DNA of 41,055 nucleotides from a virus (Duplodnaviria > Heunggongvirae > Uroviricota > Caudoviricetes), in IMG/VR virus record IMGVR_UViG_2529293142_000021, positions 1 to 41,055 of that record, one strand, 5' to 3'. Below the pieces are notes generated by a model that worked only from the letters and a program-made list of their open reading frames with translations, had not been told where the DNA came from and did no database searches. Numbering within the stretch: position 1 is the first letter of the stretch; every line of letters begins with the position of its first letter. This document shows positions 740-16,778 of the stretch, in pieces. The position numbers were made by a program, and so were the translations under genes.

Positions 740-1867
740 TTAAACTGATACTTTAATCCAGTCCTTTCCGCGATCATCGTGGTATCGGTCCGTTTGCCTT
801 TGCGATTTGTGCCCCAGCAATTCTTTAGTATCAATACCCTGATCGCGGTAGAGTCGTTCTGCTAGTGATCTTTGTTCATGAAATGTGGCTGGAGTGCCGT
901 CGCCCCAGTCAAGTGCAGCCTGGTCGCGCGCCTTGCTAAAATTCATCGTTAGCGTGTTAGCCTTCACCTGTGCCCCGCGTTCCGCTTGCGAAGTTGCGCG
1001 AAAAAAATGCACGAGGTAAGGGCTGACGGCATAATCACGGCAGCGGGCGACAACTTCGCGCAAACTCCAATTGATTGCATTACAACGGAGCGCCAGTGGG
1101 ATTGCGACCTTACTCCCTGTTTTTTCCTGCACTACATGCAGATGGTCATCCCAAATATCAGTAAATTTCATTCTTGATATATCGCCTAATCGCTGACCTG
1201 TCACGACAGCAAGTAGCATGGCGTTGCCGAGGTATTTGTGAGTGGCGTCGGCAATATCAAAAATCTTCTGCCATTCTTCCAGGTTCAGGCGTTGCCGGGT
1301 AATTCTGCGCCGAGGCTGTTTAGTTGCCAGTGCAGGGTTGTGCCCTGGCGGAACCTCGCCAGCGTGTTGAGCCTCTTTGAAAACGTCAATGAGCACAGAG
1401 CGGATAACCTGCGCCATTCTGGGCTGGCCCGCAGAAAGATATTGGTCCAGAATCTGCGCTATGTCCCGAACCGTGACATCTGTTATTAACCTCATGCCAG
1501 CGGCCTCACGTAATAGATTCACCGGCTTAAGTTTTTGTTTGTGCGTATTGACCTTAATATCATCGATCTTTAAACGCTCGTCTTGTATTTTCCAGTATCG
1601 GTCCAGCCAGGTGTTAACAGTAATAGCGCCGCCTTTGCTGGTGGAAATGAGGTCTGTAATCGCCTGGACTTGCCTGGCGTGCTGTTCAGCGATCCGCCTG
1701 TTCGCCTCAATTGCGATTTCCGTAGCGACCGTTTCATCAGTGCCGAGTGCATGAAATTTGCCGGTAATCGGGTGCTTGTATCGCCAATAAATTTTTTTAG
1801 ATTTCCGGCTATACAGAGGGTACAGGTTAGGGATTTTTACGTTGTTTTTACGTGGTCTGGCAGCCAT
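740..1867 (-). CDS. int: tyrosine recombinase, phage integrase
   Basis: 375-aa ORF; C-terminal LLGHKS...TDRY tyrosine-recombinase signature; overlaps the xis-like gene as in lambda; same length as I recall for e14 IntE. Confidence 0.9.
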   Translation of the reverse strand: MAARPRKNNVKIPNLYPLYSRKSKKIYWRYKHPITGKFHALGTDETVATEIAIEANRRIAEQHARQVQAITDLISTSKGGAITVNTWLDRYWKIQDERLKIDDIKVNTHKQKLKPVNLLREAAGMRLITDVTVRDIAQILDQYLSAGQPRMAQVIRSVLIDVFKEAQHAGEVPPGHNPALATKQPRRRITRQRLNLEEWQKIFDIADATHKYLGNAMLLAVVTGQRLGDISRMKFTDIWDDHLHVVQEKTGSKVAIPLALRCNAINWSLREVVARCRDYAVSPYLVHFFRATSQAERGAQVKANTLTMNFSKARDQAALDWGDGTPATFHEQRSLAERLYRDQGIDTKELLGHKSQRQTDRYHDDRGKDWIKVSV

Positions 1868-2689: not shown

Positions 2690-3415
2690 TCAGCGCGATT
2701 TAATTAAATTGGTACTTACAATGTGCTGAACATGTCTTTCGTCAATTTTGGCGCTATAAACTTCATACACCTGGTGACCATCAATTGTTTCACCCTCCAG
2801 AGCGCGCATGCTGATATTGTTATCGAGGCGATATTGACTGCGCAGGCCGTGAATTCGTGATTCAGGATCTGGCGATTTATCAAAATATAAGCTTTTATAG
2901 TCATGGCTTAACATTGAATATTCGCTGTCAATCAGTCGTATGTCTGGGCGTTCCCAGCCATTCTCTGCCGCCTGTTCTACGTTAGCATCAATAAAGGCGT
3001 CTAAAAATTCGCTTAATTTAATAACCGGTGGTAACAGCGATTCGTCCATGACTTCTTTAAGCATTTTCTCGGCCTTGACTATCATTGAATCAGCAACACC
3101 GCTTCCGGCGAACGTTTCGCGCAGGCGTTGTGTGATCATGTCGTTGTATCGCCCCAGGTCGATGACATTTTCCATATTGCCTGGCAGGGCTGCGCGGAAC
3201 GCCTCTTTAGTGGATTTTGAAAAATCACTGTAATTAGAGAAAACATCATTAACGATACCGTTAACGCACGATTCGATTTTGGAGTCGATGATTTGCAGCA
3301 TTTTTGGGCTAGTTGAAAACGCAGCAATACGCCCCGCTAATACCTCGCCAATACTCTGACGTGCTAAAATATTAATATCGGCATCATTCAGTTGGTTTTT
3401 ATTTTGTTCGTCCAT
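2690..3415 (-). CDS. hypothetical protein, early-left accessory
   Basis: 241-aa ORF, somewhat AT-rich, between the xis region and the immunity region; no recognisable catalytic motif. Confidence 0.6.
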   Translation of the reverse strand: MDEQNKNQLNDADINILARQSIGEVLAGRIAAFSTSPKMLQIIDSKIESCVNGIVNDVFSNYSDFSKSTKEAFRAALPGNMENVIDLGRYNDMITQRLRETFAGSGVADSMIVKAEKMLKEVMDESLLPPVIKLSEFLDAFIDANVEQAAENGWERPDIRLIDSEYSMLSHDYKSLYFDKSPDPESRIHGLRSQYRLDNNISMRALEGETIDGHQVYEVYSAKIDERHVQHIVSTNLIKSR

Positions 3416-3491
3416 TTAAATTGCTCCTGATTAAATTTAGGTTGCAGAAATCCCCGCCAACGAGTGGCGTAATAATTCGCAGTGTTGCTGA

Positions 3492-3752
3492 TTACTGAAT
3501 TTGTGGTTTGCCGCGCTCGTTTAAAAACACATCAACGATGCAGTTAGATACCCGTTTTTGTTCAAACGGGCGGAGTAAATACAGATTGCCGCCGGTATTT
3601 GCTGACGCGCGCCAGGTCATGCCGTTGTGGCGTAACAGTGTGCCAGGTGCAACGGTGCTGCTGTGCTCCTGTTTTGTGCCGTAGTTACCAATCATAAGAC
3701 CCCCAAAAATTTTTGCCCTTAAGCCGGGCCGCTGAACGTTTTCCCGTCGCAC
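3492..3752 (-). CDS. hypothetical protein, first gene of leftward early operon
   Basis: 86-aa ORF; true start may be the internal MIGNYGTK Met. Lies downstream of an operator-like region at 3775-3802. Confidence 0.4.
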   Translation of the reverse strand: MRRENVQRPGLRAKIFGGLMIGNYGTKQEHSSTVAPGTLLRHNGMTWRASANTGGNLYLLRPFEQKRVSNCIVDVFLNERGKPQIQ

Positions 3753-3774
3753 CGGTGTGCTTCGATGTATACAG

Positions 3775-3802
3775 TGTCAGTTATTGACTGACTTGTGTCA
3801 AT
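3775..3802. promoter_or_regulatory. operator-like cluster (PL-like), TGTCAG/TGACA half-sites
   Basis: TGTCAG ttat TGACTGAC ttg TGTCAA shares half-site motifs with the palindrome upstream of the cro-like gene (4730-4742). Confidence 0.35.
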
Positions 3803-3916
3803 CGCGGGCTTACATATTTTTGCTGGCATTCCTGCTGGTGGAGCATAAGCGCATAAAATCTAAACGTTTTTACGCCATTATTTTTTTGCTGGAGGGGCTT
3901 TTTAGGTGTGCTGAGA

Positions 3917-4270
3917 TTATTTGTCGCGACGTTTAATAGACGTCTGATACTGCTGCTCGAGCTGGTGGAGTGCTGCTATAGCCTCAGAATAGGGGAGCTG
4001 ACGGAACGCGCGGAGTAACCGGATCTCATCGTCAGTGAGAGTGGTTAGATCTGGTGATTCTGTGCCGTAATCCAGCCAGGCTGGGGAGACGATGAGGTAT
4101 TCCGCCAGGGCGGACAATTTATCACTTCGCGGACGCGCGGTGCCGAGGGTGTACCGCCGCGCCATCTCATACGTAACAGAACAGACGGCGCTTAACTCTT
4201 TAACGGTTACGCGCCTTTTCTGCATTTCGGCAGTGAGCCGTTCAGCGAACGCGGCATATTTAGCGGGCAT
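3917..4270 (-). CDS. HTH regulator, CI-like paralog
   Basis: 117-aa protein with N-terminal HTH-like segment (VTVKELSAVCSVTYEMARRY) and a C-terminal region resembling that of the adjacent repressor (LRAFRQLP vs VYRALPP). Confidence 0.55.
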   Translation of the reverse strand: MPAKYAAFAERLTAEMQKRRVTVKELSAVCSVTYEMARRYTLGTARPRSDKLSALAEYLIVSPAWLDYGTESPDLTTLTDDEIRLLRAFRQLPYSEAIAALHQLEQQYQTSIKRRDK

Positions 4271-4276
4271 AAATTG

Positions 4277-4660
4277 TTATTTCTGGCGGGTCACTGGATC
4301 AACATTGTTAGCGTAATAATCGCGTAATGCCTCCAGCCTCATTTGAAACGCTGCGAGCATGTTGCGCTGCTCGATCGGGGGTAATGCTCTGTATACGTCA
4401 ACGAGCGCCCGTTCATCCTCGCTGAGAGCGCCCGCAGTTTTCTCGTCTTTCCCCGTGAGTAGCCAGTCCAGAGAAACATTGGCGGCGGCTGCGATTTTGG
4501 CGGCAGCCGCCTTACTGATAGTGCCTCGTTTGTGCCAGCCGTAAACCGACGACCGACTAACGTCGGCAATCCTGCCCATGTCGGCATCATTCCAGTGATT
4601 GCGCGTCGCTATCTCGTAAAGCCGCGCAGATAGCGGGGTGTCGTACGTTGTTTTTTTCAT
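4277..4660 (-). CDS. phage repressor, CI-like HTH protein
   Basis: 127-aa ORF transcribed divergently from the cro-like gene; HTH-like segment MGRIADVSRSSVYGWHKRG; position equivalent to cI. Confidence 0.65.
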   Translation of the reverse strand: MKKTTYDTPLSARLYEIATRNHWNDADMGRIADVSRSSVYGWHKRGTISKAAAAKIAAAANVSLDWLLTGKDEKTAGALSEDERALVDVYRALPPIEQRNMLAAFQMRLEALRDYYANNVDPVTRQK

Positions 4661-6873: not shown

Positions 6874-7091
6874 GCGCCGCGAATTTACCCGCCTGCCCGG
6901 AGTGCGGAAACAGACCTGAATACGCATTCAAAATTGACTACCAGGGCTGGCACCGTGGCGGGCTGAAATGCCCCTACGACCACCACCGCGTATCACTCGA
7001 CAGCCCGGCGGGTACGCGCAAAAACGCAGAGGAAAGGCTGGCCCCACAGTGGTGTGAGCTGGTCGCAAAAATACAGGGAGAGACAGAATGA
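6870..7091 (+). CDS. small Cys-rich zinc-ribbon protein
   Basis: 73 aa with CPECG...CPYDHH...WC; start overlaps the previous stop. Confidence 0.4.
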   Translation: MSAANLPACPECGNRPEYAFKIDYQGWHRGGLKCPYDHHRVSLDSPAGTRKNAEERLAPQWCELVAKIQGETE

Positions 7092-8407
7092 GCGACGCAG
7101 CGATGATCATTGCGCCAACAGATATTCGCGAGATGGTGCGTGAGGTAGAGACGGCTTATTACCGGTATCTCGAAGAATTCCGCATCCCGGACGATCACAA
7201 AATCGTTGTGAATTTCTCCGCAGGAAAAGACAGCACTACAACAGCGACCATTGCGCATCACCTGTTCGGCGACCGTGTTAAAAATGTTATGGCGGATACT
7301 GATAACGAGCATGAATTAACTGTCGATTTTGCTCGTAATGTCCATCATCAAATCGGTTGTAAACCTGTTCAAATTGTTAAGCGCATTTACACCGAGGCGG
7401 AGTTTGAGCGCCGTCGCCAGTCTCTCAAAGACCGCTGGCCTAAACGCCAGGCAATTAGAATGGGGGCATATCGAGGTGTAATCATGCCATCGTTGGCGCG
7501 GGCAGATACCAAATTTGGTCAGGCATGGTTACGCACCGCTGAGCGCTGGGGGATTGAGTTTGAGACACCTCTGGAGGCCGCTATTTCAGTGATGCATCCG
7601 AGCGGAAACAGCTTCCTGGATGCTGCGTTATTGCATGGCAAATTTCCAATGCTGAGAGACCGTTTTTGTACTGACGAACTGAAAATTCAGATCGCTTTTG
7701 ACGCTGCGATAAAACCACTTTTGGATGATGGAGAGGTCGTCGTTCAGTGGTCTGGCGTTCGCGCAGATGAGTCTGACAAGCGCGCCGGTTATTCGAGATT
7801 TGCGCGTGACGAGCGTGATCCAGATTTCCTCTATAACTTCCTGCCTATTCATAAATGGACAGCGGCAGATGTTTTTGCGTTGCATAAATATTTCGGTATT
7901 AAACCAAATCCTCTGTACGTGCAGGGTGCGTCCCGTGTCGGTTGCATGAACTGCGTGTTGAGCACCAAAGAGGAAATTTCTGAGACGGCTGCACGCTGGC
8001 CTGAGCATATCGAAAAACACCATGCATGGGAGAAGAAAGTACGCCTGGCATCACGCTGGGTGCATTGGATGAGTGTCGGAACGGAAAGTCAGGCATGGAT
8101 GCGGTCACAGTTGGGATTTCGCATCGAAGCCTGGATGGGAGAGGATGAATTTACCGGAGAGGAAATTATGCGGAGCAGGAAATATCCAATAAACCTCGGT
8201 ACGGATATCAAACTATACGGCTTAGAGCCAGACATTCAGCGCATTGAGTGGTCAGGATTCTACGGGCCGCGCGGGAATATGGGTGCGCCGTCAGCGATTG
8301 ATGTTGTTGAGTGGGCGAAAACCGGGCGCGGCGGAAAGGTTTATGATCTGGTGAAGGCCAGCATGAACACTGCCGTGTGCTCTTCACGTTACGGATTATG
8401 CGAATAG
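7088..8407 (+). CDS. PAPS reductase-like PP-loop protein
   Basis: 439-aa ORF with PP-loop motif FSAGKDS near the N-terminus, as in the PAPS reductase / DndC-like family. Confidence 0.75.
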   Translation: MSDAAMIIAPTDIREMVREVETAYYRYLEEFRIPDDHKIVVNFSAGKDSTTTATIAHHLFGDRVKNVMADTDNEHELTVDFARNVHHQIGCKPVQIVKRIYTEAEFERRRQSLKDRWPKRQAIRMGAYRGVIMPSLARADTKFGQAWLRTAERWGIEFETPLEAAISVMHPSGNSFLDAALLHGKFPMLRDRFCTDELKIQIAFDAAIKPLLDDGEVVVQWSGVRADESDKRAGYSRFARDERDPDFLYNFLPIHKWTAADVFALHKYFGIKPNPLYVQGASRVGCMNCVLSTKEEISETAARWPEHIEKHHAWEKKVRLASRWVHWMSVGTESQAWMRSQLGFRIEAWMGEDEFTGEEIMRSRKYPINLGTDIKLYGLEPDIQRIEWSGFYGPRGNMGAPSAIDVVEWAKTGRGGKVYDLVKASMNTAVCSSRYGLCE

Positions 8408-9413: not shown

Positions 9414-10001
9414 ATGAATATTTTAAATAAAGAGTGGTTGCAAACCACAATTGCGGGCATTGAGGCGTTACGCGATGAAATGCCGTTCGGCCTCAATGAA
9501 GATGAAAGTAATACGCTAATTGCGTTAAAAATGGCACTCGCCTCGCTGGAAGCAAAACCAATAGGCGCTTTCCACATTACAGAGCAGCAAGTTGACGGCA
9601 CAAGTGACTACGTCAAGGATGGGGAATGGCCTATTTATAATGGGGTTATTGAAGTCTACGCCGCCCCGCCAGCGCCGGTAGTGCCAGTTATCACGTTTGA
9701 ACAGGCGATATTGGAATCCAGGCGGCTAACCCCTGCTGAAGCGTATGAGAAGGCGTGGAACGCCTGCCGCGCAGCCACGCTTCAGGGTAAATCCGAACAA
9801 CCACAAAACGCACAACAAAATATTCCAGAAAATATTCCTGGTGGCAACTCTCCGGTAACTCCGGACGATTGGATCACCGCTGTAAATAGACTATTAGATA
9901 GTGACGGCAGTCGCGGCTGCTATCACGCCATTGAGCTGGCAGAGGCCCGCGCTGAACTGGAGCGCCTGATTGCAGAGACAGCGCCACATCAGGACAATTG
10001 A
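9414..10001 (+). CDS. hypothetical protein
   Basis: 195-aa ORF; no motif recognised. Confidence 0.5.
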   Translation: MNILNKEWLQTTIAGIEALRDEMPFGLNEDESNTLIALKMALASLEAKPIGAFHITEQQVDGTSDYVKDGEWPIYNGVIEVYAAPPAPVVPVITFEQAILESRRLTPAEAYEKAWNACRAATLQGKSEQPQNAQQNIPENIPGGNSPVTPDDWITAVNRLLDSDGSRGCYHAIELAEARAELERLIAETAPHQDN

Positions 10002-10265
10002 CAATAATCACCCACCGGGGCTATATTCACCGAACGCCAGCAAAATCTGGCGTCGGGATTGGTCTCCCGGATATCTACTCAACGCATACCGCGTTAAGCG
10101 GTTTTTTATGCGTAAAGCACGGCTACACCCGCGAGTTATGGTGGGCTGTGTGAGGGCTTCTTAGGAAGCGCCGGGTTTGAGTAGCCGGTAAGACCAACCT
10201 TGCACAGTTCACCACCAGTCGATTGGTCTCGACGGTGGTGATGGTTAACCCACCGAGGTGACGCT

Positions 10266-10934: not shown

Positions 10935-11579
10935 ATGAAAGACTTATACAATGATGAGTGGTCCGCCGGGTTTATCGCCCGGGTTGACCTGCTGCGCGAG
11001 CTGGACAATCAGTCAATCACACAGCCTCTCTACAGAGAGCGCGCCGACATGATTTTTACTGAAATGACGGCGCGATTCACTGCACGACTGCGGGAAACGT
11101 TGGGTGATATTGATGATCCGGGCGTCACCCTGGACGACGCAATCCGCTATTACGTGAACGGCGAACGCGGCGACCCGCTGTTAGATTACCTGTCCTCCCG
11201 CACTCGCCCATTTTGTGACGCGATGCACATTTCCAGCGATGCCTACGGAATTGCGGCATATTGCTGCGCGTTCATGATGTGGAAGGGTGATCTGAGGGTG
11301 GCATATGCGTTTTTCTCTCTGTTAATGCGCCCCCTGGTATCTGCGTATCGATACCGAATCGACGCGCAGCGCCGTGGCTCGGCTGGTGGACACCCGCACC
11401 ACCGGCTGCGCCCGGAGGCGCTGGAGCTGGCGGCGGAATATTTCACAGAAAATCCGAGGGCAACAAATGCGGACGCCGCAAAGCATATTTTAAATGTATT
11501 AAATGTTAAATATTCCGACCCTCCTCATGCTATATCGGTTGCGCGGTGGTTAAAAACCATTTACGGAGATAATAAATAA
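10935..11579 (+). CDS. hypothetical protein
   Basis: 214-aa ORF with RBS-like GAGG before the ATG. Confidence 0.5.
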   Translation: MKDLYNDEWSAGFIARVDLLRELDNQSITQPLYRERADMIFTEMTARFTARLRETLGDIDDPGVTLDDAIRYYVNGERGDPLLDYLSSRTRPFCDAMHISSDAYGIAAYCCAFMMWKGDLRVAYAFFSLLMRPLVSAYRYRIDAQRRGSAGGHPHHRLRPEALELAAEYFTENPRATNADAAKHILNVLNVKYSDPPHAISVARWLKTIYGDNK

Positions 11580-11584
11580 CGAAA

Positions 11585-11621
11585 CACAACCAGCTTATGT
11601 ACTACACAAGCTGGTTGTGTA
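11585..11621 (+). terminator. hairpin with 13-bp stem
   Basis: ACACAACCAGCTT atgtactacac AAGCTGGTTGTGT followed by tatatttgt. Confidence 0.4.
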
Positions 11622-11720
11622 TATTTGTCGCGTGAATATATTAGAGCATTATTTCCCCAGATTAATTATTTGAGACAGCAATGCCATAAAATGATACTGT
11701 ATATTTGTACAGTATCTTGT

Positions 11721-11909
11721 ATGACGGGGGATAACGTGAACGAACGCGAATTATTAGATATTGTCCGGCCTGACGGGCGTTATGAGCTGATTAGCCAGGG
11801 CGGTAAATTTATTGTGAGGCCGTTACGCGCTGACGAAATTATTATTTCCCCCGAATCACACAGAGAGTGCAAAAAACGTTTCAGTAATACGCAAACTGAA
11901 TTACAATAA
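11721..11909 (+). CDS. small hypothetical protein
   Basis: Internal start MTGDNVNERELLD of the 11625 ORF. Confidence 0.3.
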   Translation: MTGDNVNERELLDIVRPDGRYELISQGGKFIVRPLRADEIIISPESHRECKKRFSNTQTELQ

Positions 11910-12009: not shown

Positions 12010-12300
12010 GTGACTAAATTCGATCGTATCTGGCTGAGCCGCGTTGCGTCGCTCGGCTGTATTGTCTGTAAAAATCTTGGCTACGGCGAAAGCCCGGCGG
12101 AGATTCACCACGTTCGCACCGGTCAGGGCACTGCCCAGCGTGCAGGCCACCAGCAAACAATCCCCCTGTGCTGTCAGCACCACCGTGTTGGTGGTTACGG
12201 CGTAGCAATTCACTCAGGCAAAAAGACCTGGGAGAAAAAATACGGTCAGGAAATTGATCTGCTGAATCAGACGTTAACCGCGCTGGGGGAAAACGTCTGA
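12010..12300 (+). CDS. Cys/His-rich putative nuclease, nin-region
   Basis: GTG start; CIVC...HH...CCQHH metal-binding pattern; directly upstream of RusA. The Ref/HNH-like assignment is from memory. Confidence 0.45.
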   Translation: MTKFDRIWLSRVASLGCIVCKNLGYGESPAEIHHVRTGQGTAQRAGHQQTIPLCCQHHRVGGYGVAIHSGKKTWEKKYGQEIDLLNQTLTALGENV

Positions 12301-12659
12301 TGGCAAAATATTCAATCACCCCACTGGGTAAACCCCGCATGACCCGTGCTGACAAATGGAAACAGCGCCCGCCGGTGCTGCGTTACCGCGTGTTTTGTGA
12401 TGAGGTCCGCTTAAGCGGCATTACGCTGCCCGAGAACGGCGCACACGTTGTATTTGTTATGCCTATGCCAGCGAGCTGGAGCCAGAAAAAACGCGCCAGC
12501 ATGAACGGTGCGGCCCACCAGCAAAAACCGGATATTGATAACCTCACTAAATCGCTGTTAGACGCCCTGTTTGATGACGATTCTCATATTTGGGATGTCC
12601 GGGCGTCGAAAATATGGGGCTATGAGGGCGCGATCGTGGTGCAGGAAGGTGCGGCATGA
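12300..12659 (+). CDS. rusA: Holliday junction resolvase RusA-like
   Basis: 119 aa; acidic motif PDIDNLTKSLLDALFDD characteristic of RusA family; typical position upstream of Q. Confidence 0.8.
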   Translation: MAKYSITPLGKPRMTRADKWKQRPPVLRYRVFCDEVRLSGITLPENGAHVVFVMPMPASWSQKKRASMNGAAHQQKPDIDNLTKSLLDALFDDDSHIWDVRASKIWGYEGAIVVQEGAA

Positions 12660-14563
12660 AATACGGTTCCGTTTGCAGCGGTATTGAGGCCGCGAGTGTG
12701 GCGTGGGAGTCCCTCGGCTGGCAGCCTGCATGGTTCGCAGAGATTGAGCCGTTCCCCGCCGCTGTGCTGGCGCATCACTGGCCGCAGGTCAAAAACCTTG
12801 GCGATATGACGAAAATCGCCGCCGGTGTCCTCGCTGATCAAATCGAGGCACCAGACGTGCTGGTGGGCGGCACTCCCTGCCAGGCATTCAGCGTTGCCGG
12901 ATTGCGCAATGGACTGGCCGACGAACGCGGACAATTGACCCTTTCTTACGTGGAATTAGCAAATGCAATCGATGACAAGCGCCGCCAGCGCGGTGAACGG
13001 GAATCAATCATCGTCTGGGAAAATGTCCCCGGCGTGCTCAACAGCAAAGACAACGCGTTCGGATGTTTTCTGGCTGGGCTTGCCGGAGAAAGCAGTGCGT
13101 TGCAGCCACCAGGGGGAAAATGGACGCTCGCAGGTTGTGTGCGTGGACCCGCGCGAAATATTGCCTGGCGAGTGCTCGACGCTCAATTTTTCGGAGTGGC
13201 ACAACGACGCCGCCGTGTGTTCGTTATCGCAAGTGCTAGAGACGATATCGATCCCGCAAAAATACTTTTTGAGTCCGACGGCGTGCGCCGGGATACTCCG
13301 CCGCGCAGAGAGTCGCAAACGGCAGTTGCCGCTCTTACTGCGCACGGCGTTGGAGCGTGTGGCGCAGACGACAACCAGGCGCAGGCAGGACATCTAATCC
13401 CTGAGATCAGCGCATATCGCATGACCGCATTCGGCGAGTATGCTGATGATGAAACTGCATCGACAGTTAAAGCGAGAGATTACAAAGATGCGACCGATCT
13501 GGCAGTTATGACGGTCCATGGCACACAGGATCCAGACGTTAACATCGAATTAGCGCACACGCTGGGGCGGAATAATGGGCAGGAAAATGCCTGCATAGCA
13601 TTCAGCTATAAAGATCACGGCCAAGATGCAGGATATGAAATAGCGCCTACTTTGCGGGCGGGGAATTGCGATACAGGGCGGGGTAACAGCGGGCAACCGC
13701 CAGCGGTCGCCAAGGCAATGCTCGTACGCCGTCTCACTCCGCGTGAGTGTGAGCGCCTCCAGGGATTCCCGGACGACCACACAAAAATACCCTGGCGCAA
13801 CAAACTGACTGAGGACTGTCCGGACGGGGCGCGATACAAAGCGATCGGCAATAGCATGGCAGTGCCGGTGATGCGCTGGATCGGCGAGCAAATTAAACGA
13901 GCAACAGCAACGCAGGAAATTATCTGTAATCCCTACGTCGCGGCGGTTGATAAATTACGCGCGCAGAATGAACACTATTTGCGCGAAGTTGGCGATCAGT
14001 GGCGCACTCCTGATCTGCTGTTTTGGGGTATTAATGCAATATTTGGCCCACTGGTCCTCGATCTGTTTACTGACGGCGATAATTCAAAATGTCCGAATTA
14101 CTACACGGCCGAACAAAACGCGCTAACGCAAGACTGGTCCGCGCGACTCGCGGATCTGGGCGGCGCTGCGTTCGCTAATCCGCCGTACAGTCGATCGCAG
14201 TATCACGACGGACAGGCGATCACCGGCATGGCCCACATCATGAGCCACGCCCGCTCAATGCGTGACGCTGGTGGGCGTTTTGTTTTCCTGCTGAAAGCCG
14301 CGCCATCGGAAACCTGGTGGCCGGAGGACGCGGATCACGTAACGTTTATTCGCGGTCGTGTCGGTTTTGATTTGCCAGCCTGGTTTAATCCTGCTGATGA
14401 AAAACAGGCACCCTCCAGCGCAAATTTTGCGGCGGCAATTGTTGTGCTGGATAAAAACTGGCGCGGGGGCCGGTTCGGATATATCCACCGCACAGAGCTG
14501 GAAGCGAAAGGCCGCGCCGCCCTGGCGCTGGCACGGTATGCAGTCAATGAGGCCATATTTTGA
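12656..14563 (+). CDS. fused C5-cytosine and N6-adenine DNA methyltransferase
   Basis: N-terminal half has C5-MTase motifs: GSVCSGIEAAS (I), GGTPCQAFSVAG (IV), ENVPG (VI), QRRRRVF (VIII), GNSMAVPV (X). C-terminal half has a phage Dam-like region with the NPPY catalytic motif (FANPPYSRS). No cognate endonuclease nearby. Confidence 0.85.
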   Translation: MKYGSVCSGIEAASVAWESLGWQPAWFAEIEPFPAAVLAHHWPQVKNLGDMTKIAAGVLADQIEAPDVLVGGTPCQAFSVAGLRNGLADERGQLTLSYVELANAIDDKRRQRGERESIIVWENVPGVLNSKDNAFGCFLAGLAGESSALQPPGGKWTLAGCVRGPARNIAWRVLDAQFFGVAQRRRRVFVIASARDDIDPAKILFESDGVRRDTPPRRESQTAVAALTAHGVGACGADDNQAQAGHLIPEISAYRMTAFGEYADDETASTVKARDYKDATDLAVMTVHGTQDPDVNIELAHTLGRNNGQENACIAFSYKDHGQDAGYEIAPTLRAGNCDTGRGNSGQPPAVAKAMLVRRLTPRECERLQGFPDDHTKIPWRNKLTEDCPDGARYKAIGNSMAVPVMRWIGEQIKRATATQEIICNPYVAAVDKLRAQNEHYLREVGDQWRTPDLLFWGINAIFGPLVLDLFTDGDNSKCPNYYTAEQNALTQDWSARLADLGGAAFANPPYSRSQYHDGQAITGMAHIMSHARSMRDAGGRFVFLLKAAPSETWWPEDADHVTFIRGRVGFDLPAWFNPADEKQAPSSANFAAAIVVLDKNWRGGRFGYIHRTELEAKGRAALALARYAVNEAIF

Positions 14564-15240
14564 AATTAGAATCACTCCCAAAATTTTACGCACCGAAATC
14601 GCCAAATCTCGGCGCAACAGCGCCCGCCACCGGCGGCGACCGCATGACGATTACTGACGTAATGACGGCTCAGGGGTTCGTTCAGTCAAAAACGCCGCTG
14701 GGGTTCGCGTTATTTCTCGCGAAAGCAGGCATTCAGACGCCTGAGCCAGCGATTGAACTGCTGGCAAAAATCGCGTGGGAACTGGCACCGGCGTGCCGCG
14801 CTGTTAACGTGCTGCCAGGCAACCAGCGCGCTGCCGTGTGTGACGTGCTGGCAACGATGGCCTACCAGGACTACTCCCGCAGCGCCGCCAGCGTGCGCCC
14901 GTGTGACTGCTGCGCGGGTGACGGGTTTATAACTGCTGAGGTGTTTACAATGAAAATGGCAGGCGTGGTACATCGGCAGGTACGAGAGATTGAGCGCATA
15001 TTGTGCGCTAATTGTAAGGGGAAGCGAGTAATTAGCAATTCGTGCCGTTGCCACGGTAAGGGGAGGGTGTTGGATGCCTCTGGCGAGGTCCTTTTGTGGA
15101 AAGAGTGCGACCGATGTAGGGGGCGAGGATACTCTCGTTTGAAATTTTCCGCCGTACTGGTTGCGTTGCAGCGGGTGTGGCCGGAGCTAAAAAAACCACT
15201 GCTTACAATGAAGTGCAGCCATTTTTTGAAATACTGGTGA
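14560..15240 (+). CDS. late antiterminator Q-like
   Basis: Cys-rich C-terminus (CANCKGK...CRCHGKG...CDRCRGRG), last gene before the late promoter/lysis region. ORF track start is TTG at 14560; real start may be the ATG at 14644. Confidence 0.65.
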   Translation: MKLESLPKFYAPKSPNLGATAPATGGDRMTITDVMTAQGFVQSKTPLGFALFLAKAGIQTPEPAIELLAKIAWELAPACRAVNVLPGNQRAAVCDVLATMAYQDYSRSAASVRPCDCCAGDGFITAEVFTMKMAGVVHRQVREIERILCANCKGKRVISNSCRCHGKGRVLDASGEVLLWKECDRCRGRGYSRLKFSAVLVALQRVWPELKKPLLTMKCSHFLKYW

Positions 15241-15395
15241 CGCATTGCCACAGAGAAGAGGCTGCAGCCGAACAGCAATTACAGGTGGTTACGCGCTGAT
15301 TATTGCTAAAAAAAGGTGCTAAAAATTACATTGTTGCTATTCATGGAAAAATAGGATAAATTTCCTCCAACGATAGGCGTTGTATGTTCGTTCCT

Positions 15396-15463: not shown

Positions 15464-15505
15464 GTGACAAGATCATGTTTACTGTTAAAATCATTCAACA
15501 TGATT
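15464..15505 (+). promoter_or_regulatory. candidate sigma70 promoter with operator palindrome for the cassette
   Basis: GTGACA (15464-15469), 16-bp spacer, TAAAAT (15486-15491); palindrome AATCAT tcaac ATGATT overlaps the -10 region. Confidence 0.35.
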
Positions 15506-15566: not shown

Positions 15567-16331
15567 ATGCAGGGTCAACCCAAGACTAAACACCAAGAGT
15601 TGGTCGAGACGCTATCATTATATATAAACTCGCGAACCCCGTTAGAGGAGCCTCTTTTGGGTGAGCTCTTACGCGAGATTAATAAGCAGTCCGTTGCCTC
15701 TCGTGCATATCTGATGGCTTTGTGGATGGAGGCTCAGAACAGGCATGATGAGACAGTGGCATGGTATCTAGAGGCGATAGCTACTTCTGGTGAGCACGCT
15801 TCTGTTGTTGCAGGTAACTATCTGAGTTACCTGAGTTGCTCAGCGCATAATCTTTTTCACAGAACAGAATTATTTCGATTGGTAGATATATATTGTACTA
15901 AGCGGATAAGAAGAATGGCCAGGAATGCAGCATTTTGCATGGGAAATGACCGGCTTGTTAACCGATTCACTGTGATGATGAAGGCTTTACTCGATGGCCA
16001 AGAACGTGAAGAAATCGAGCGTGAGGGGGCAAAAATGGTGGAAGCTATTGTCACTTTTAAAGAAGCCACTAAGCTAACTTCATCTGAAATCCAGAAGCTG
16101 TGTGATTCAGCTGAGCAAATTGCAAATAGCCATGGCGTGAATTGTGCGGGTGTTGAGTATTTTCTTAGCGGTGGATACGACAACGCCATAATTCTGTTTG
16201 CAGATACTAGCGACTCTAGCACTCTTACCACCATGAACATGGAACTCATAGGCTTGCTTGCTGATGATCCCTATATAGACCGTCCATTTACTTCATGGTT
16301 TAAGAGTTCTGATATGAAGGATCGGGTGTAA
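15567..16331 (+). CDS. hypothetical protein, gene A of the Q-holin cassette
   Basis: 254-aa ORF, AT-rich relative to flanks; stop overlaps the start of the next ORF (TAATG); no Walker A or other catalytic motif recognised. Confidence 0.65.
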   Translation: MQGQPKTKHQELVETLSLYINSRTPLEEPLLGELLREINKQSVASRAYLMALWMEAQNRHDETVAWYLEAIATSGEHASVVAGNYLSYLSCSAHNLFHRTELFRLVDIYCTKRIRRMARNAAFCMGNDRLVNRFTVMMKALLDGQEREEIEREGAKMVEAIVTFKEATKLTSSEIQKLCDSAEQIANSHGVNCAGVEYFLSGGYDNAIILFADTSDSSTLTTMNMELIGLLADDPYIDRPFTSWFKSSDMKDRV

Positions 16332-16732
16332 TGAGTGTATCAGGTCAAGATTTCATTAATTTTGCAGAGAAGTGTCTCGAATTTAATGATGAGATAGGTT
16401 TCAGGAATGTGGTAGGACGCTCCTATTATGGTGTTTACCATGAAATCTGTAGCAAACTTGAGCATTGTTATGTGCTGACTTCTCATGAAGGTGTTCGCAA
16501 TTACCTTATGAGTTCTACGCAGTGTAAAAAAGAGCCGTTTGATAAAGCCGGACTCAGAAGAATTGGTGCATTTCTTCATAGTCTTCATGTGCAGAGAAAG
16601 TGGGCTGATTACACTCTTGAACGCGAATTAGTTAAAGCTGATGCGGAATCCGCACTCAATACCGCAAAACAAGTCATGGCTGAAATCAAGGCCTTACACG
16701 AGGCGGTTTACCCTCCTCAACCTGCTGCGTAA
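16331..16732 (+). CDS. HEPN-like protein, gene B of the Q-holin cassette
   Basis: 133-aa ORF translationally coupled to gene A; contains RNVVGRSYYGVYHEI, RRIGAFLH (R-x5-H) and RKWADY, reminiscent of HEPN RNase domains. Confidence 0.55.
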   Translation: MSVSGQDFINFAEKCLEFNDEIGFRNVVGRSYYGVYHEICSKLEHCYVLTSHEGVRNYLMSSTQCKKEPFDKAGLRRIGAFLHSLHVQRKWADYTLERELVKADAESALNTAKQVMAEIKALHEAVYPPQPAA

Positions 16733-16751
16733 CTCACGAAATCCGACATGG

Positions 16752-16778
16752 AAACCCGCCTCCGAGCGGGTTTTTTTG
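16752..16778 (+). terminator. rho-independent terminator after the cassette
   Basis: AAACCCGC tccgag GCGGGTTT followed by TTTTTTT. Confidence 0.6.

Follow-up and report, generated by a model that had tools for sequence, protein, structure and literature searches.

A fused C5-cytosine/N6-adenine DNA methyltransferase gene in the nin-type region of a lambdoid prophage and its probable role in escape from restriction

The virus record IMGVR_UViG_2529293142_000021 (Caudoviricetes) consists of 41,055 nucleotides (nt), and this whole stretch is called the window here. Its plus strand carries, between a rusA gene and an antiterminator Q gene, an open reading frame (ORF) of 635 amino acids (aa), the product of which is predicted to be a DNA methyltransferase (MTase) with a C5-cytosine domain in the N-terminal half and an N6-adenine domain in the C-terminal half (Table 1). 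The ORF starts with ATG and runs over 1,908 nt with no internal stop codon. The ribosome-binding site (RBS) AGGAAGG is located 7 nt in front of the ATG, which shares the sequence ATGA with the rusA stop codon, and the MTase stop codon overlaps the start of Q; translational coupling links the MTase gene to rusA on one side and to Q on the other. An earlier note on this DNA had described a single 635-aa ORF, and this was confirmed, whereby a stop codon or frameshift between the two halves, which would have split the ORF into two genes, was looked for and none was found. Two other assemblies, L005 and L006, agree with the window at 99.96% identity across 14.3 kb and both encode the identical 635-aa protein, and in a third one (L014) the positions 2738-4645 match 12656-14563 of the window with 100% identity over all 1,908 nt. 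Since these independent assemblies carry the identical ORF, it is not an assembly artefact. The 635-aa product and near-identical variants of it are recorded on more than 90 contigs, and the identical protein (P0001) is already present in NCBI, for example as EPE4767392.1. When the MTase gene was searched for at the DNA level, no full-length match turned up, neither among 50,697 phage records nor among 5,426 complete E. coli genomes; the search yielded two short patches of 77-80% identity in phages and, in E. coli, a CRISPR (clustered regularly interspaced short palindromic repeats) spacer alone.

Table 1. Features of the fused MTase gene and its neighbours in the window. HMM, hidden Markov model (the core HMM is described in the text); PAM, protospacer adjacent motif; AdoMet, S-adenosyl-methionine.
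Feature	Residues	Position (nt)	Strand	Basis or remark
Ref-like RecA-dependent HNH nuclease, not a restriction enzyme		12010..12300	+	PF16786, E=3.6e-13; no PADLOC match
RusA Holliday-junction resolvase		12300..12659	+	PF05866, E=1.2e-14; phrog_140
RBS AGGAAGG and ATGA start/stop overlap with rusA		12643..12659	+	sequence read
Whole gene, predicted fused C5-cytosine/N6-adenine DNA MTase	1-635	12656..14563	+	PF00145 + PF05869; TIGR00675 + TIGR01712
C5 catalytic core, N-terminal part	1-190	12656..13225	+	M.HhaI profile alignment
Motif I, GSVCSGIEAAS	4-14	12665-12697	+	
Motif IV, GGTPCQAFS, with Cys75 (PCQ)	71-79	12866-12892; Cys75 codon within 12875-12883	+	
Motif VI, WENVPG (ENV)	121-126	13016-13033	+	
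Motif VIII, QRRRRVFV	183-190	13202-13225	+	
C5 variable/target-recognition region, N-B-C-D-E	191-356	13226..13723	+	sole length-variable part among 120 homologues
Cassette B, AVAALTAHGVGACGADDNQAQAGHLI	223-248	13322..13399	+	independently present/absent; core HMM -0.1 bits, not significant
Cassette C, Dcm-like core TVKARDYKDATDLAV at residues 270-284	253-284	13412..13507	+	Dcm match E=0.028
Cassette D, core AHTLGRNNGQEN	288-316	13517..13603	+	marginal core-HMM match, 2.5-5.0 bits
Cassette E, canonical core of the family APTLRAGN	317-352	13604..13711	+	14.6-17.6 bits to core HMM
Protospacer (13715-13746) with AAG PAM (13712-13714)		13712..13746	+	type I-E spacer match 32/32; encodes AMLVRRLTPRE (motif IX)
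Motif IX, VRRLTPRECERLQGFPD	357-373	13724-13774	+	aligned to M.HhaI and M.HaeIII
Motif X, GNSMAVPVMRWIG	398-410	13847-13885	+	aligned to M.HhaI and M.HaeIII
Fusion junction, KRATATQEIICNPY	414-427	13895..13936	+	C5 end directly into Dam N-terminus
N6-adenine MTase module	425-635	13928..14560	+	PF05869 / TIGR01712
AdoMet-site-like VLDLFTDGDN	467-476	14054-14083	+	
Catalytic NPPY, within FANPPYSR (residues 506-513)	508-511	14177-14188	+	
Antiterminator Q, C-terminus frameshifted in the window		14560..15240	+	PF03589, E=2.3e-25; phrog_127

The earlier note had proposed a domain search, and this search assigned the two halves of the protein to two different MTase families. PF00145 covers residues 1-415 with its complete profile (1-324 of 324; E=2.8e-42; 145.7 bits against a cut-off of 22), and the NCBIfam model TIGR00675 (dcm) gave 134.1 bits against a cut-off of 100.65. 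For the placement of the C5 motifs, 31 homologues with 63-73% identity were combined into a profile, which was aligned to M.HhaI. The motifs I, IV, VI, VIII, IX, and X were found in this order, in agreement with the ordered C5-MTase motifs that had been noticed before in the N-terminal half, and C75, E122, and R184/R185/R187 are invariant among the 31 homologues. Judged by family model and motifs, residues 1-415 constitute what is predicted to be a complete C5-cytosine MTase domain. For the C-terminal half, PF05869 ("Dam") covers residues 441-620 (profile 4-167 of 169; E=1.1e-40; 139.6 bits against a cut-off of 28.1), and the equivalog model TIGR01712 (phage_N6A_met) of NCBIfam gave 180.4 bits against a cut-off of 97.05. 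The phage Dam-like module with NPPY, which had also been read from the sequence before, was recovered in this way, and N508-P509-P510-Y511 are likewise invariant among the 31 homologues. A comparison of the adenine half with solved structures revealed none that is alike by sequence.

The window is a rare lambdoid prophage of E. coli. Its left, early end contains an integrase gene (740-1867, minus strand), repressor-like helix-turn-helix genes, a gene for an O-like replication initiator, and a PAPS-reductase-like gene. The MTase gene is part of a nin-type block with the order KilA-N, Ref-like nuclease, RusA, MTase, and Q, in which all genes are co-directional and several of them overlap. The late genes encode lysis functions, a λ GpA-type terminase, a portal, a ClpP-capsid protein, and a contractile-tail module. 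No restriction or defence-effector family from Pfam, PHROGs, or PADLOC was found among the ORFs that flank the MTase gene and most of the larger ORFs of the window. The nuclease-like neighbours of the MTase are the Ref-like HNH nuclease and RusA only, and the PADLOC "MTase_II" models match the MTase itself, with no restriction endonuclease (REase) present. A type II restriction-modification (R-M) system was therefore rejected, as the MTase is without a cognate REase among the scanned ORFs of the window. The statement of the earlier note that no restriction endonuclease lies nearby holds across all ORFs that were scanned, and it is justified to call the MTase an orphan, with the usual caveat on unmodelled nucleases. 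Upstream of the MTase gene there are terminator-like hairpins at 10088-10102 and 11584-11620, whereby the latter has a perfect stem of 17 base pairs and lies between 10935-11579 and 11625-11909. A strong, near-consensus σ70-like site (9998-10027; TTGACA-18-TATATT; 11/12) is located just 5' of the KilA-N gene and is followed by a terminator-like hairpin ~60 nt further on. The σ70-like site and the hairpins may represent nin-type terminators together with a site for a small RNA or for antitermination. The gene arrangement corresponds to that of the nin region of phage λ, which repressor and terminators hold silent in a lysogen and which is transcribed by antitermination read-through upon induction.

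The transition between the two halves of the MTase was analyzed by comparison with proteins that have only one of them. When the fusion is aligned with the stand-alone Dam protein of phage 1720a-02, its residue 425 faces residue 3 of the latter, and stand-alone C5 relatives stop at a median of ~6 aa past motif X. The fusion is therefore end-to-end and essentially without a linker. The junction region contains no internal Met, and codon 422 is ATT. As to its origin, the protein appears to consist of a P1-Dmt-type C5 MTase (residues 1 to ~421) that was joined end-to-end to a complete phage PF05869 MTase (~422-635). In a search of 5.8 billion proteins, all of the 120 best clusters, with 54-70% identity, carry PF00145 together with PF05869, and since this count comprises the best clusters listed, at least 120 clusters contain the fusion. 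Most of them derive from prophage-rich enterobacteria; Morganella accounts for the majority, and Salmonella, Enterobacter, Pantoea, E. coli, and a Providencia phage are represented as well. The fused gene is present in the isolated Enterobacter phage CobraSix as one gene of 637 aa (COBRASIX_41) and in the Providencia phage PSTRCR_117lys. Within the whole C5 family, which comprises 5,799 representatives at 50% identity (E<=1e-30), the fusion is a minority state, and the Dam module occurs in 8 of the 150 best representatives. In Aeromonas phages, the two halves are encoded by separate genes with a pyrophosphohydrolase gene between them.

The layout of a C5 MTase fused to an adenine MTase is not new, as it has been known since phage P1, and the version with PF00145 and PF05869 is abundant. 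In the literature that was searched, neither a characterised PF00145+PF05869 fusion nor a specificity for the C5 domain of P1 Dmt was found. Dmt (754 aa) combines, like the window MTase, an N-terminal C5 and a C-terminal N6-adenine MTase in one polypeptide. It is a phage orphan with a C1 operator at its promoter and is described as methylating GATC adenines "and perhaps" C5 cytosines. Residues 1-421 of the window protein, its C5 half, are 52% identical to their homologous counterpart in Dmt (E=2e-153), and cassette C of the recognition region is shared as well. However, the adenine module of Dmt belongs to the D12 class (PF02086; residues 493-725), whereas that of the window belongs to PF05869, and no significant alignment was obtained between the C-terminal halves of the two proteins. 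Thus, with unrelated adenine modules, the fusions in P1 and in the window arose independently. Dmt furthermore carries an insert of 21 aa, located between motifs VI and VIII, and its cassette set is a different one, and P1 has a pac packaging system that requires GATC methylation (PMC12707154), whereas the window prophage has a λ-type terminase. The window MTase is predicted to work like Dmt, yet it is no full-length orthologue of it.

The adenine module has closer relatives among phage proteins that are not fused to a C5 domain. The Dam proteins of T1 and HP1 are members of the PF05869/TIGR01712 family. To the same family belongs the experimentally characterised M.EcoVT2Dam of the Shiga toxin (Stx) phage VT2-Sakai, which shares the NPPY motif with the window MTase and is also encoded in the nin region, between ninB and ninE. 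In comparison to M.EcoVT2Dam, the adenine module of the window represents a longer subfamily (~210 aa) with an extra N-terminal helix and a C-terminal extension. M.EcoVT2Dam has been treated as a GATC Dam homologue (PMC6602927; PMC7556043). The stand-alone Dam protein of the Stx-type phage 1720a-02 (AGR48376; 217 aa) is 64% identical to the adenine module of the window, and its gene lies at the same locus, just upstream of rusA and Q, unfused to a C5 domain. Stand-alone proteins of 213 aa from E. coli (P0273/P0275) are even more than 90% identical to residues ~439-635 but have an N-terminus of their own. The entire stand-alone Dam including its N-terminal helix is kept in the fusion, whereby the first ~17 residues differ between the stand-alone and the fused form (MTNEYCQNLVRQRAGGN versus ICNPYVAAVDKLRAQNE) and mark the boundary at which recombination or fusion took place. 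In Chi-like phages of Salmonella and Klebsiella, a Dam of the subfamily found in the C-terminal half of the window MTase occurs as a fusion with a PAPS-reductase domain (phrog_33262; E=7e-95 to residues 425-629). The window encodes a stand-alone PAPS-reductase-like protein at 7088-8407 (PF01507; phrog_424), so that a link between a Dam module and a PP-loop enzyme recurs in the window and the Chi-like phages.

In order to describe the recognition region of the C5 half, the fused homologues were compared in length and composition. They comprise 574-757 aa, and every length difference is located between the C5 motifs VIII and IX. In the 120 sequences in which both motifs were located, the region between them varies from 100 to 283 aa, whereas the N-terminal flank has 183-186 aa in nearly all and the C-terminal flank 281-283 aa in 107 of them. 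The variable region is composed of cassettes of ~30-45 aa, named A, A2, B, C or C', D, E, and F, which occur in ~50 architectures. The cassettes A, B, E, and F are independently present or absent, and natural variants that lack single cassettes occur among the homologues. C, E, and F each adjoin motif IX in some protein, as is the case for cassette C in P0120. The B-C-D-E combination of the window is confined to its own cluster, and PSTRCR_117lys has just A-C. The recognition region of this very large C5 family evolves through the gain, loss, and swapping of cassettes.

It might be that the C5 half is multispecific, with B-C-D-E as tandem, independent target recognition domains (TRDs) like those in the enzymes of the Bacillus phages SPR, φ3T, ρ11s, H2, and SPβ, which would be a refinement of the anti-restriction reading that is set out below. 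Tandem TRDs define these Bacillus enzymes (PMC8936443; PMC12707154), and an anti-restriction role has been described for them (PMC12707154; PMC8936443). M.SPRI, M.Phi3TI, M.Rho11sI, M.H2I, and M.SPBetaI/MtbP are, like the window MTase, orphan C5 MTases of temperate phages, and they too have an enlarged modular region between motifs VIII and IX with several "T-L/V" cores ~31-47 aa apart; they are, however, without an adenine module, and their TRD region shows no detectable sequence relationship to that of the window. Besides the confinement of the length variation to the recognition region and the combinatorial use of the cassettes, the cores themselves speak for tandem units. Each cassette bears a "small-small-T-L/V-x-A/K/R" core, which is the signature of the single recognition loop in M.HhaI- or Dcm-type enzymes, whereby the core patterns used were chosen post hoc. 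A core HMM (consensus ...aGTLTAGGG..GGG...) was built from the 42 aa in front of motif IX in 107 diverse representatives. Upstream of the terminal core, it detected 222 additional matches of at least 10 bits in 219 proteins and none in 20 shuffles. The diverse representatives contain 0-4 cores each with a median spacing of 44 aa, and the longer the region is, the more cores it contains. In our reading, tandem, positionally interchangeable recognition units do exist in the C5 family.

For the window protein itself, the data are more mixed. Cassette E holds the canonical core with a score above that of every shuffle, none of which reached 10 bits, and the match in cassette D is marginal. E. coli Dcm (CCWGG) has the same C5 fold and motifs but is chromosomal, paired with Vsr, and without an adenine module, and its variable region of 118 aa contains a single core. 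When the whole variable regions of Dcm and the window were compared, the best local match was that of the Dcm core TLSARYYKDGAEILI to cassette C, at the E-value given in Table 1; the similarity is too short for the CCWGG specificity to be transferred to the window. On the other side, the cassettes B and C are without a significant core-HMM score, and alignments of the cassettes with each other by hhalign revealed no significant similarity (best probability below 5%). An AlphaFold2 model from the 31-sequence alignment, with a mean predicted local distance difference test (pLDDT) value of 55, is uninformative over residues 208-380, where the value is ~25-30. The 166 aa of the window region are merely ~1.4-1.6 times the length found in monospecific enzymes. 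As a positive control, the two TRDs of the bispecific M.SPBetaI of phage SPβ scored merely 4.6 and 0.3 bits. Since the control scored so low, negatives and weak positives of the core HMM are uninterpretable, and it can rule the cassettes B, C, and D neither in nor out. Plausibly, the window protein has two recognition units (C and E) or three. That its C5 half belongs to a large, undescribed group of multispecific cytosine MTases from phages of Gram-negative bacteria, with tandem TRD cassettes of ~30-45 aa, is a tentative proposal for which we see roughly one chance in three. If true, the multispecific principle of the Bacillus phages would reach enterobacterial phages including P1 with its Dmt, and one polypeptide, with the Dam module fused to it, would guard phage DNA against several unrelated R-M systems, whereby the exchange of cassettes between prophages would bring the specificities into new combinations. 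If the cassettes were independent TRDs, they would also form a natural library of swappable C5-methylcytosine (m5C) specificities for engineering and explain how temperate enterobacterial phages match diverse R-M repertoires.

With or without several recognition units in its C5 half, the MTase is probably an orphan enzyme of a lambdoid prophage with two active sites, which methylates phage DNA during lytic growth in order to escape restriction. Expression in the lytic cycle is to be expected, because the gene sits in the nin operon and is translationally coupled between rusA and Q. It would be transcribed solely upon prophage induction or during infection, and the enzyme would use S-adenosyl-methionine to methylate replicating phage DNA. 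The C5 of cytosines would be methylated in the motif or motifs that are read by the B-C-D-E region and the N6 of adenines in a short motif, for which GATC is our best guess by family analogy, with about an even chance of being correct. The progeny genomes would then reach the next host pre-protected against methylation-sensitive R-M systems. In the lysogen, the MTase is probably silent, which would also spare the cell from m5C-dependent killing of the McrBC type. Phage orphan MTases that shield exported DNA and are expressed on exit only have been termed a "Trojan Horse defence" (PMC12707154). M.EcoGII and Mu Mom are promiscuous DNA modifiers and prophage-borne orphans of this kind, which are silent in the lysogen and protect exported DNA (PMC5778455; PMC12707154), whereby M.EcoGII, a β-class enzyme (PMC7544214), is unrelated to either half of the window MTase. 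The suggestion of the earlier note that the MTase serves anti-restriction is hence reasonable in view of the orphan state, the phage context, and the conserved catalytic motifs. As it stands, the MTase is an unremarkable, if under-annotated, case of a counter-defence already known from phages, the orphan bifunctional methyltransferase.

Several points weigh against this role. Methylation at m5C opens DNA to restriction of the McrBC type (PMC2614495), and the marks would thus expose the phage DNA. The σ70-like site lies upstream in the same orientation, so that some read-through in the lysogen is possible. With an observed/expected ratio of 1.09, the window shows no depletion of GATC, and E. 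coli brings a Dam of its own; it is therefore not evident what a GATC-specific module would add. M.EcoVT2Dam, the GATC enzyme, matches the adenine half at just 35% over 66 aa, which is too distant for its target motif to be transferred. Finally, the C5 activity of the closest relative that has been studied, P1 Dmt, carries the word "perhaps" in its annotation. Other enzymes were considered as guides to the specificity. ΦLM21 p027 (GANTC) was rejected because it shows no significant similarity, and ARM81ld p31 ("relaxed" m5C) because it is only a remote C5 relative. M.EcoGII was rejected as a model for a non-specific adenine MTase on account of its β class. Hia5 was rejected because its description contains nothing that ties it to PF05869 and places this DPPY enzyme in a subfamily of its own, which had not been characterised before (PMC3299994). 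Palindrome counts over the whole window were also compared with the expectation from a maximal-order Markov model. The observed/expected ratios were 0.23 for CTGCAG (3 observed, 13.3 expected), 0.29 for GCATGC, 0.35 for GAGCTC, 0.60 for GGCC, and 0.87 for CCWGG. Such restriction-site avoidance is not diagnostic for the targets of the MTase. The avoidance of CTGCAG is reminiscent of M.EcoGIII, a system of the PstI type in Stx phages (PMC6602927).

It could also be that the main role of the MTase is internal to the phage cycle, such as the timing of replication or late transcription, the avoidance of mismatch repair, or the control of packaging. In P1, Dmt is needed for packaging in Dam-negative hosts, where it provides the Dam methylation of pac (PMC12707154), and the common location of phage MTase genes within replication modules has been read as a hint at regulatory roles (PMC5537653). 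The window MTase gene is located among accessory genes of recombination and replication as well. However, the terminase of the window is of the λ GpA type (cos) and not of the P1 pac type. Furthermore, an internal role leaves the extreme turnover of cassettes in the recognition region unexplained, a pattern that is typical of arms-race diversification, and stand-alone and fused forms swap at the same locus, which suggests an accessory function. An internal role as the main one is hence unlikely.

Slightly less probable still is a reading that follows the second claim of the earlier note, the imprinting of the lysogen methylome, and in which the MTase is expressed in the lysogen as an epigenetic moron that imprints the DNA methylation of the host or regulates it. 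There are phage-borne MTases that, when active, alter the methylome of their host, for example M.EcoGIII on Stx phages (PMC6602927), and the upstream σ70-like site lies on the same strand as the MTase gene. On the other hand, the terminator-like hairpins lie between this promoter-like site and the MTase gene, which is located inside an early operon with overlapping stop and start codons and not in the moron position behind Q or at a prophage end. Comparable orphan MTases of prophages are reported to be silent in lysogens (PMC4659465; PMC5778455; PMC12707154), and chromosome-wide m5C would trigger killing of the McrBC type (PMC2614495). Thus, while the anti-restriction part of the earlier note is retained, its idea of an imprinted lysogen methylome is probably wrong, given the position of the gene in the early/nin operon.

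That one half only is active and the other is a decayed domain kept for DNA binding or targeting is improbable. The annotation of P1 Dmt implies that its C5 activity was never firmly demonstrated, which would fit such a view, but in the window MTase all catalytic motifs of both halves are intact and invariant among the 31 homologues, and both halves score well over the curated family cut-offs. Although some NCBI assemblies annotate just a 214-aa product from codon 422 and the window contains at least one homopolymer frameshift elsewhere, in Q, it is most improbable that the fusion is an artefact of two genes joined by a sequencing error or of two translation products, because all 1,908 nt of the DNA that carries the 214-aa call match the window at 100% and contain no stop codon, the full-length product recurs on numerous contigs, the fusion is kept at 54-70% identity, and there is no internal Met near the junction.

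The shortened annotation deserves attention in its own right. In at least 18 contigs that were read, out of 33 on record, the identical, intact ORF is called just a "phage N-6-adenine-methyltransferase" of 214 aa. This call begins at the ATT codon of Ile422 and leaves the C5 half of 1.26 kb unannotated. That the C5 half is disrupted where the 214-aa Dam is annotated was considered and rejected, since the DNA is 100% identical and intact; together with the start at ATT, this identifies the 214-aa call as an annotation artefact. Full-length calls of 635 aa are likewise named for the adenine half alone. The candidate m5C activity in these E. coli strains would therefore escape methylome studies that are based on annotation.

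The C5 half is also the target of a CRISPR spacer. The spacer that matches the coding region of motif IX was found in 38 of the 5,426 complete E. coli genomes, in a type I-E array adjacent to cas2e/iap. In L001 it is located at 1502-1533 and is approximately the fifth spacer from the cas2e-proximal end in an array of ~13 spacers. The consensus AAG PAM lies directly 5' of the protospacer, and its G is at the same time the final repeat base, an overlap that is to be expected from type I-E acquisition. The 32-mer spacer sequence was absent from all IMG/VR contigs. When the prophage was compared with the complete E. coli genomes, short patches alone matched, and the prophage therefore represents a rare lineage. 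The exact spacer match shows that E. coli populations have encountered this otherwise rare phage lineage.

Further observations concern other parts of the window. As a whole (1-41055), it is a mosaic, in which a lambdoid early and nin region is combined with a λ GpA-type terminase, a portal, and a ClpP-capsid protein as well as with a module of myovirus-type baseplate, sheath, and fibre genes. At its right end (39-41 kb), the GC content falls to 32-37%. The Q gene contains a run of seven A (A7; 15189-15195) in the window and of eight A (A8) in the two otherwise 99.96%-identical assemblies. Due to this difference, the last 38 residues of the 246-aa Q protein (TTAYNEV...VVTR) are replaced by 18 out-of-frame residues (ending in PLLTMKCSHFLKYW), which results in a protein of 226 aa, and the displaced frame of Q persists as the ORF 15177-15299. 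The A7 run is either a sequencing error or the sign of a Q-defective prophage. In the interval between Q and the lysis genes, which is the classical moron position, there is a cassette of two genes (15567-16331, 254 aa, phrog_17809; 16331-16732, 133 aa, phrog_5176). Neither gene has a match in Pfam or PADLOC. A promoter-like site with an extended -10 element (15464-15491) lies in front of the cassette, and behind it there is a strong terminator-like hairpin (16750-16775). The 133-aa protein has the HEPN-like R-x6-H motif RSYYGVYH, and the gene pair could be a toxin-antitoxin or an abortive-infection pair.

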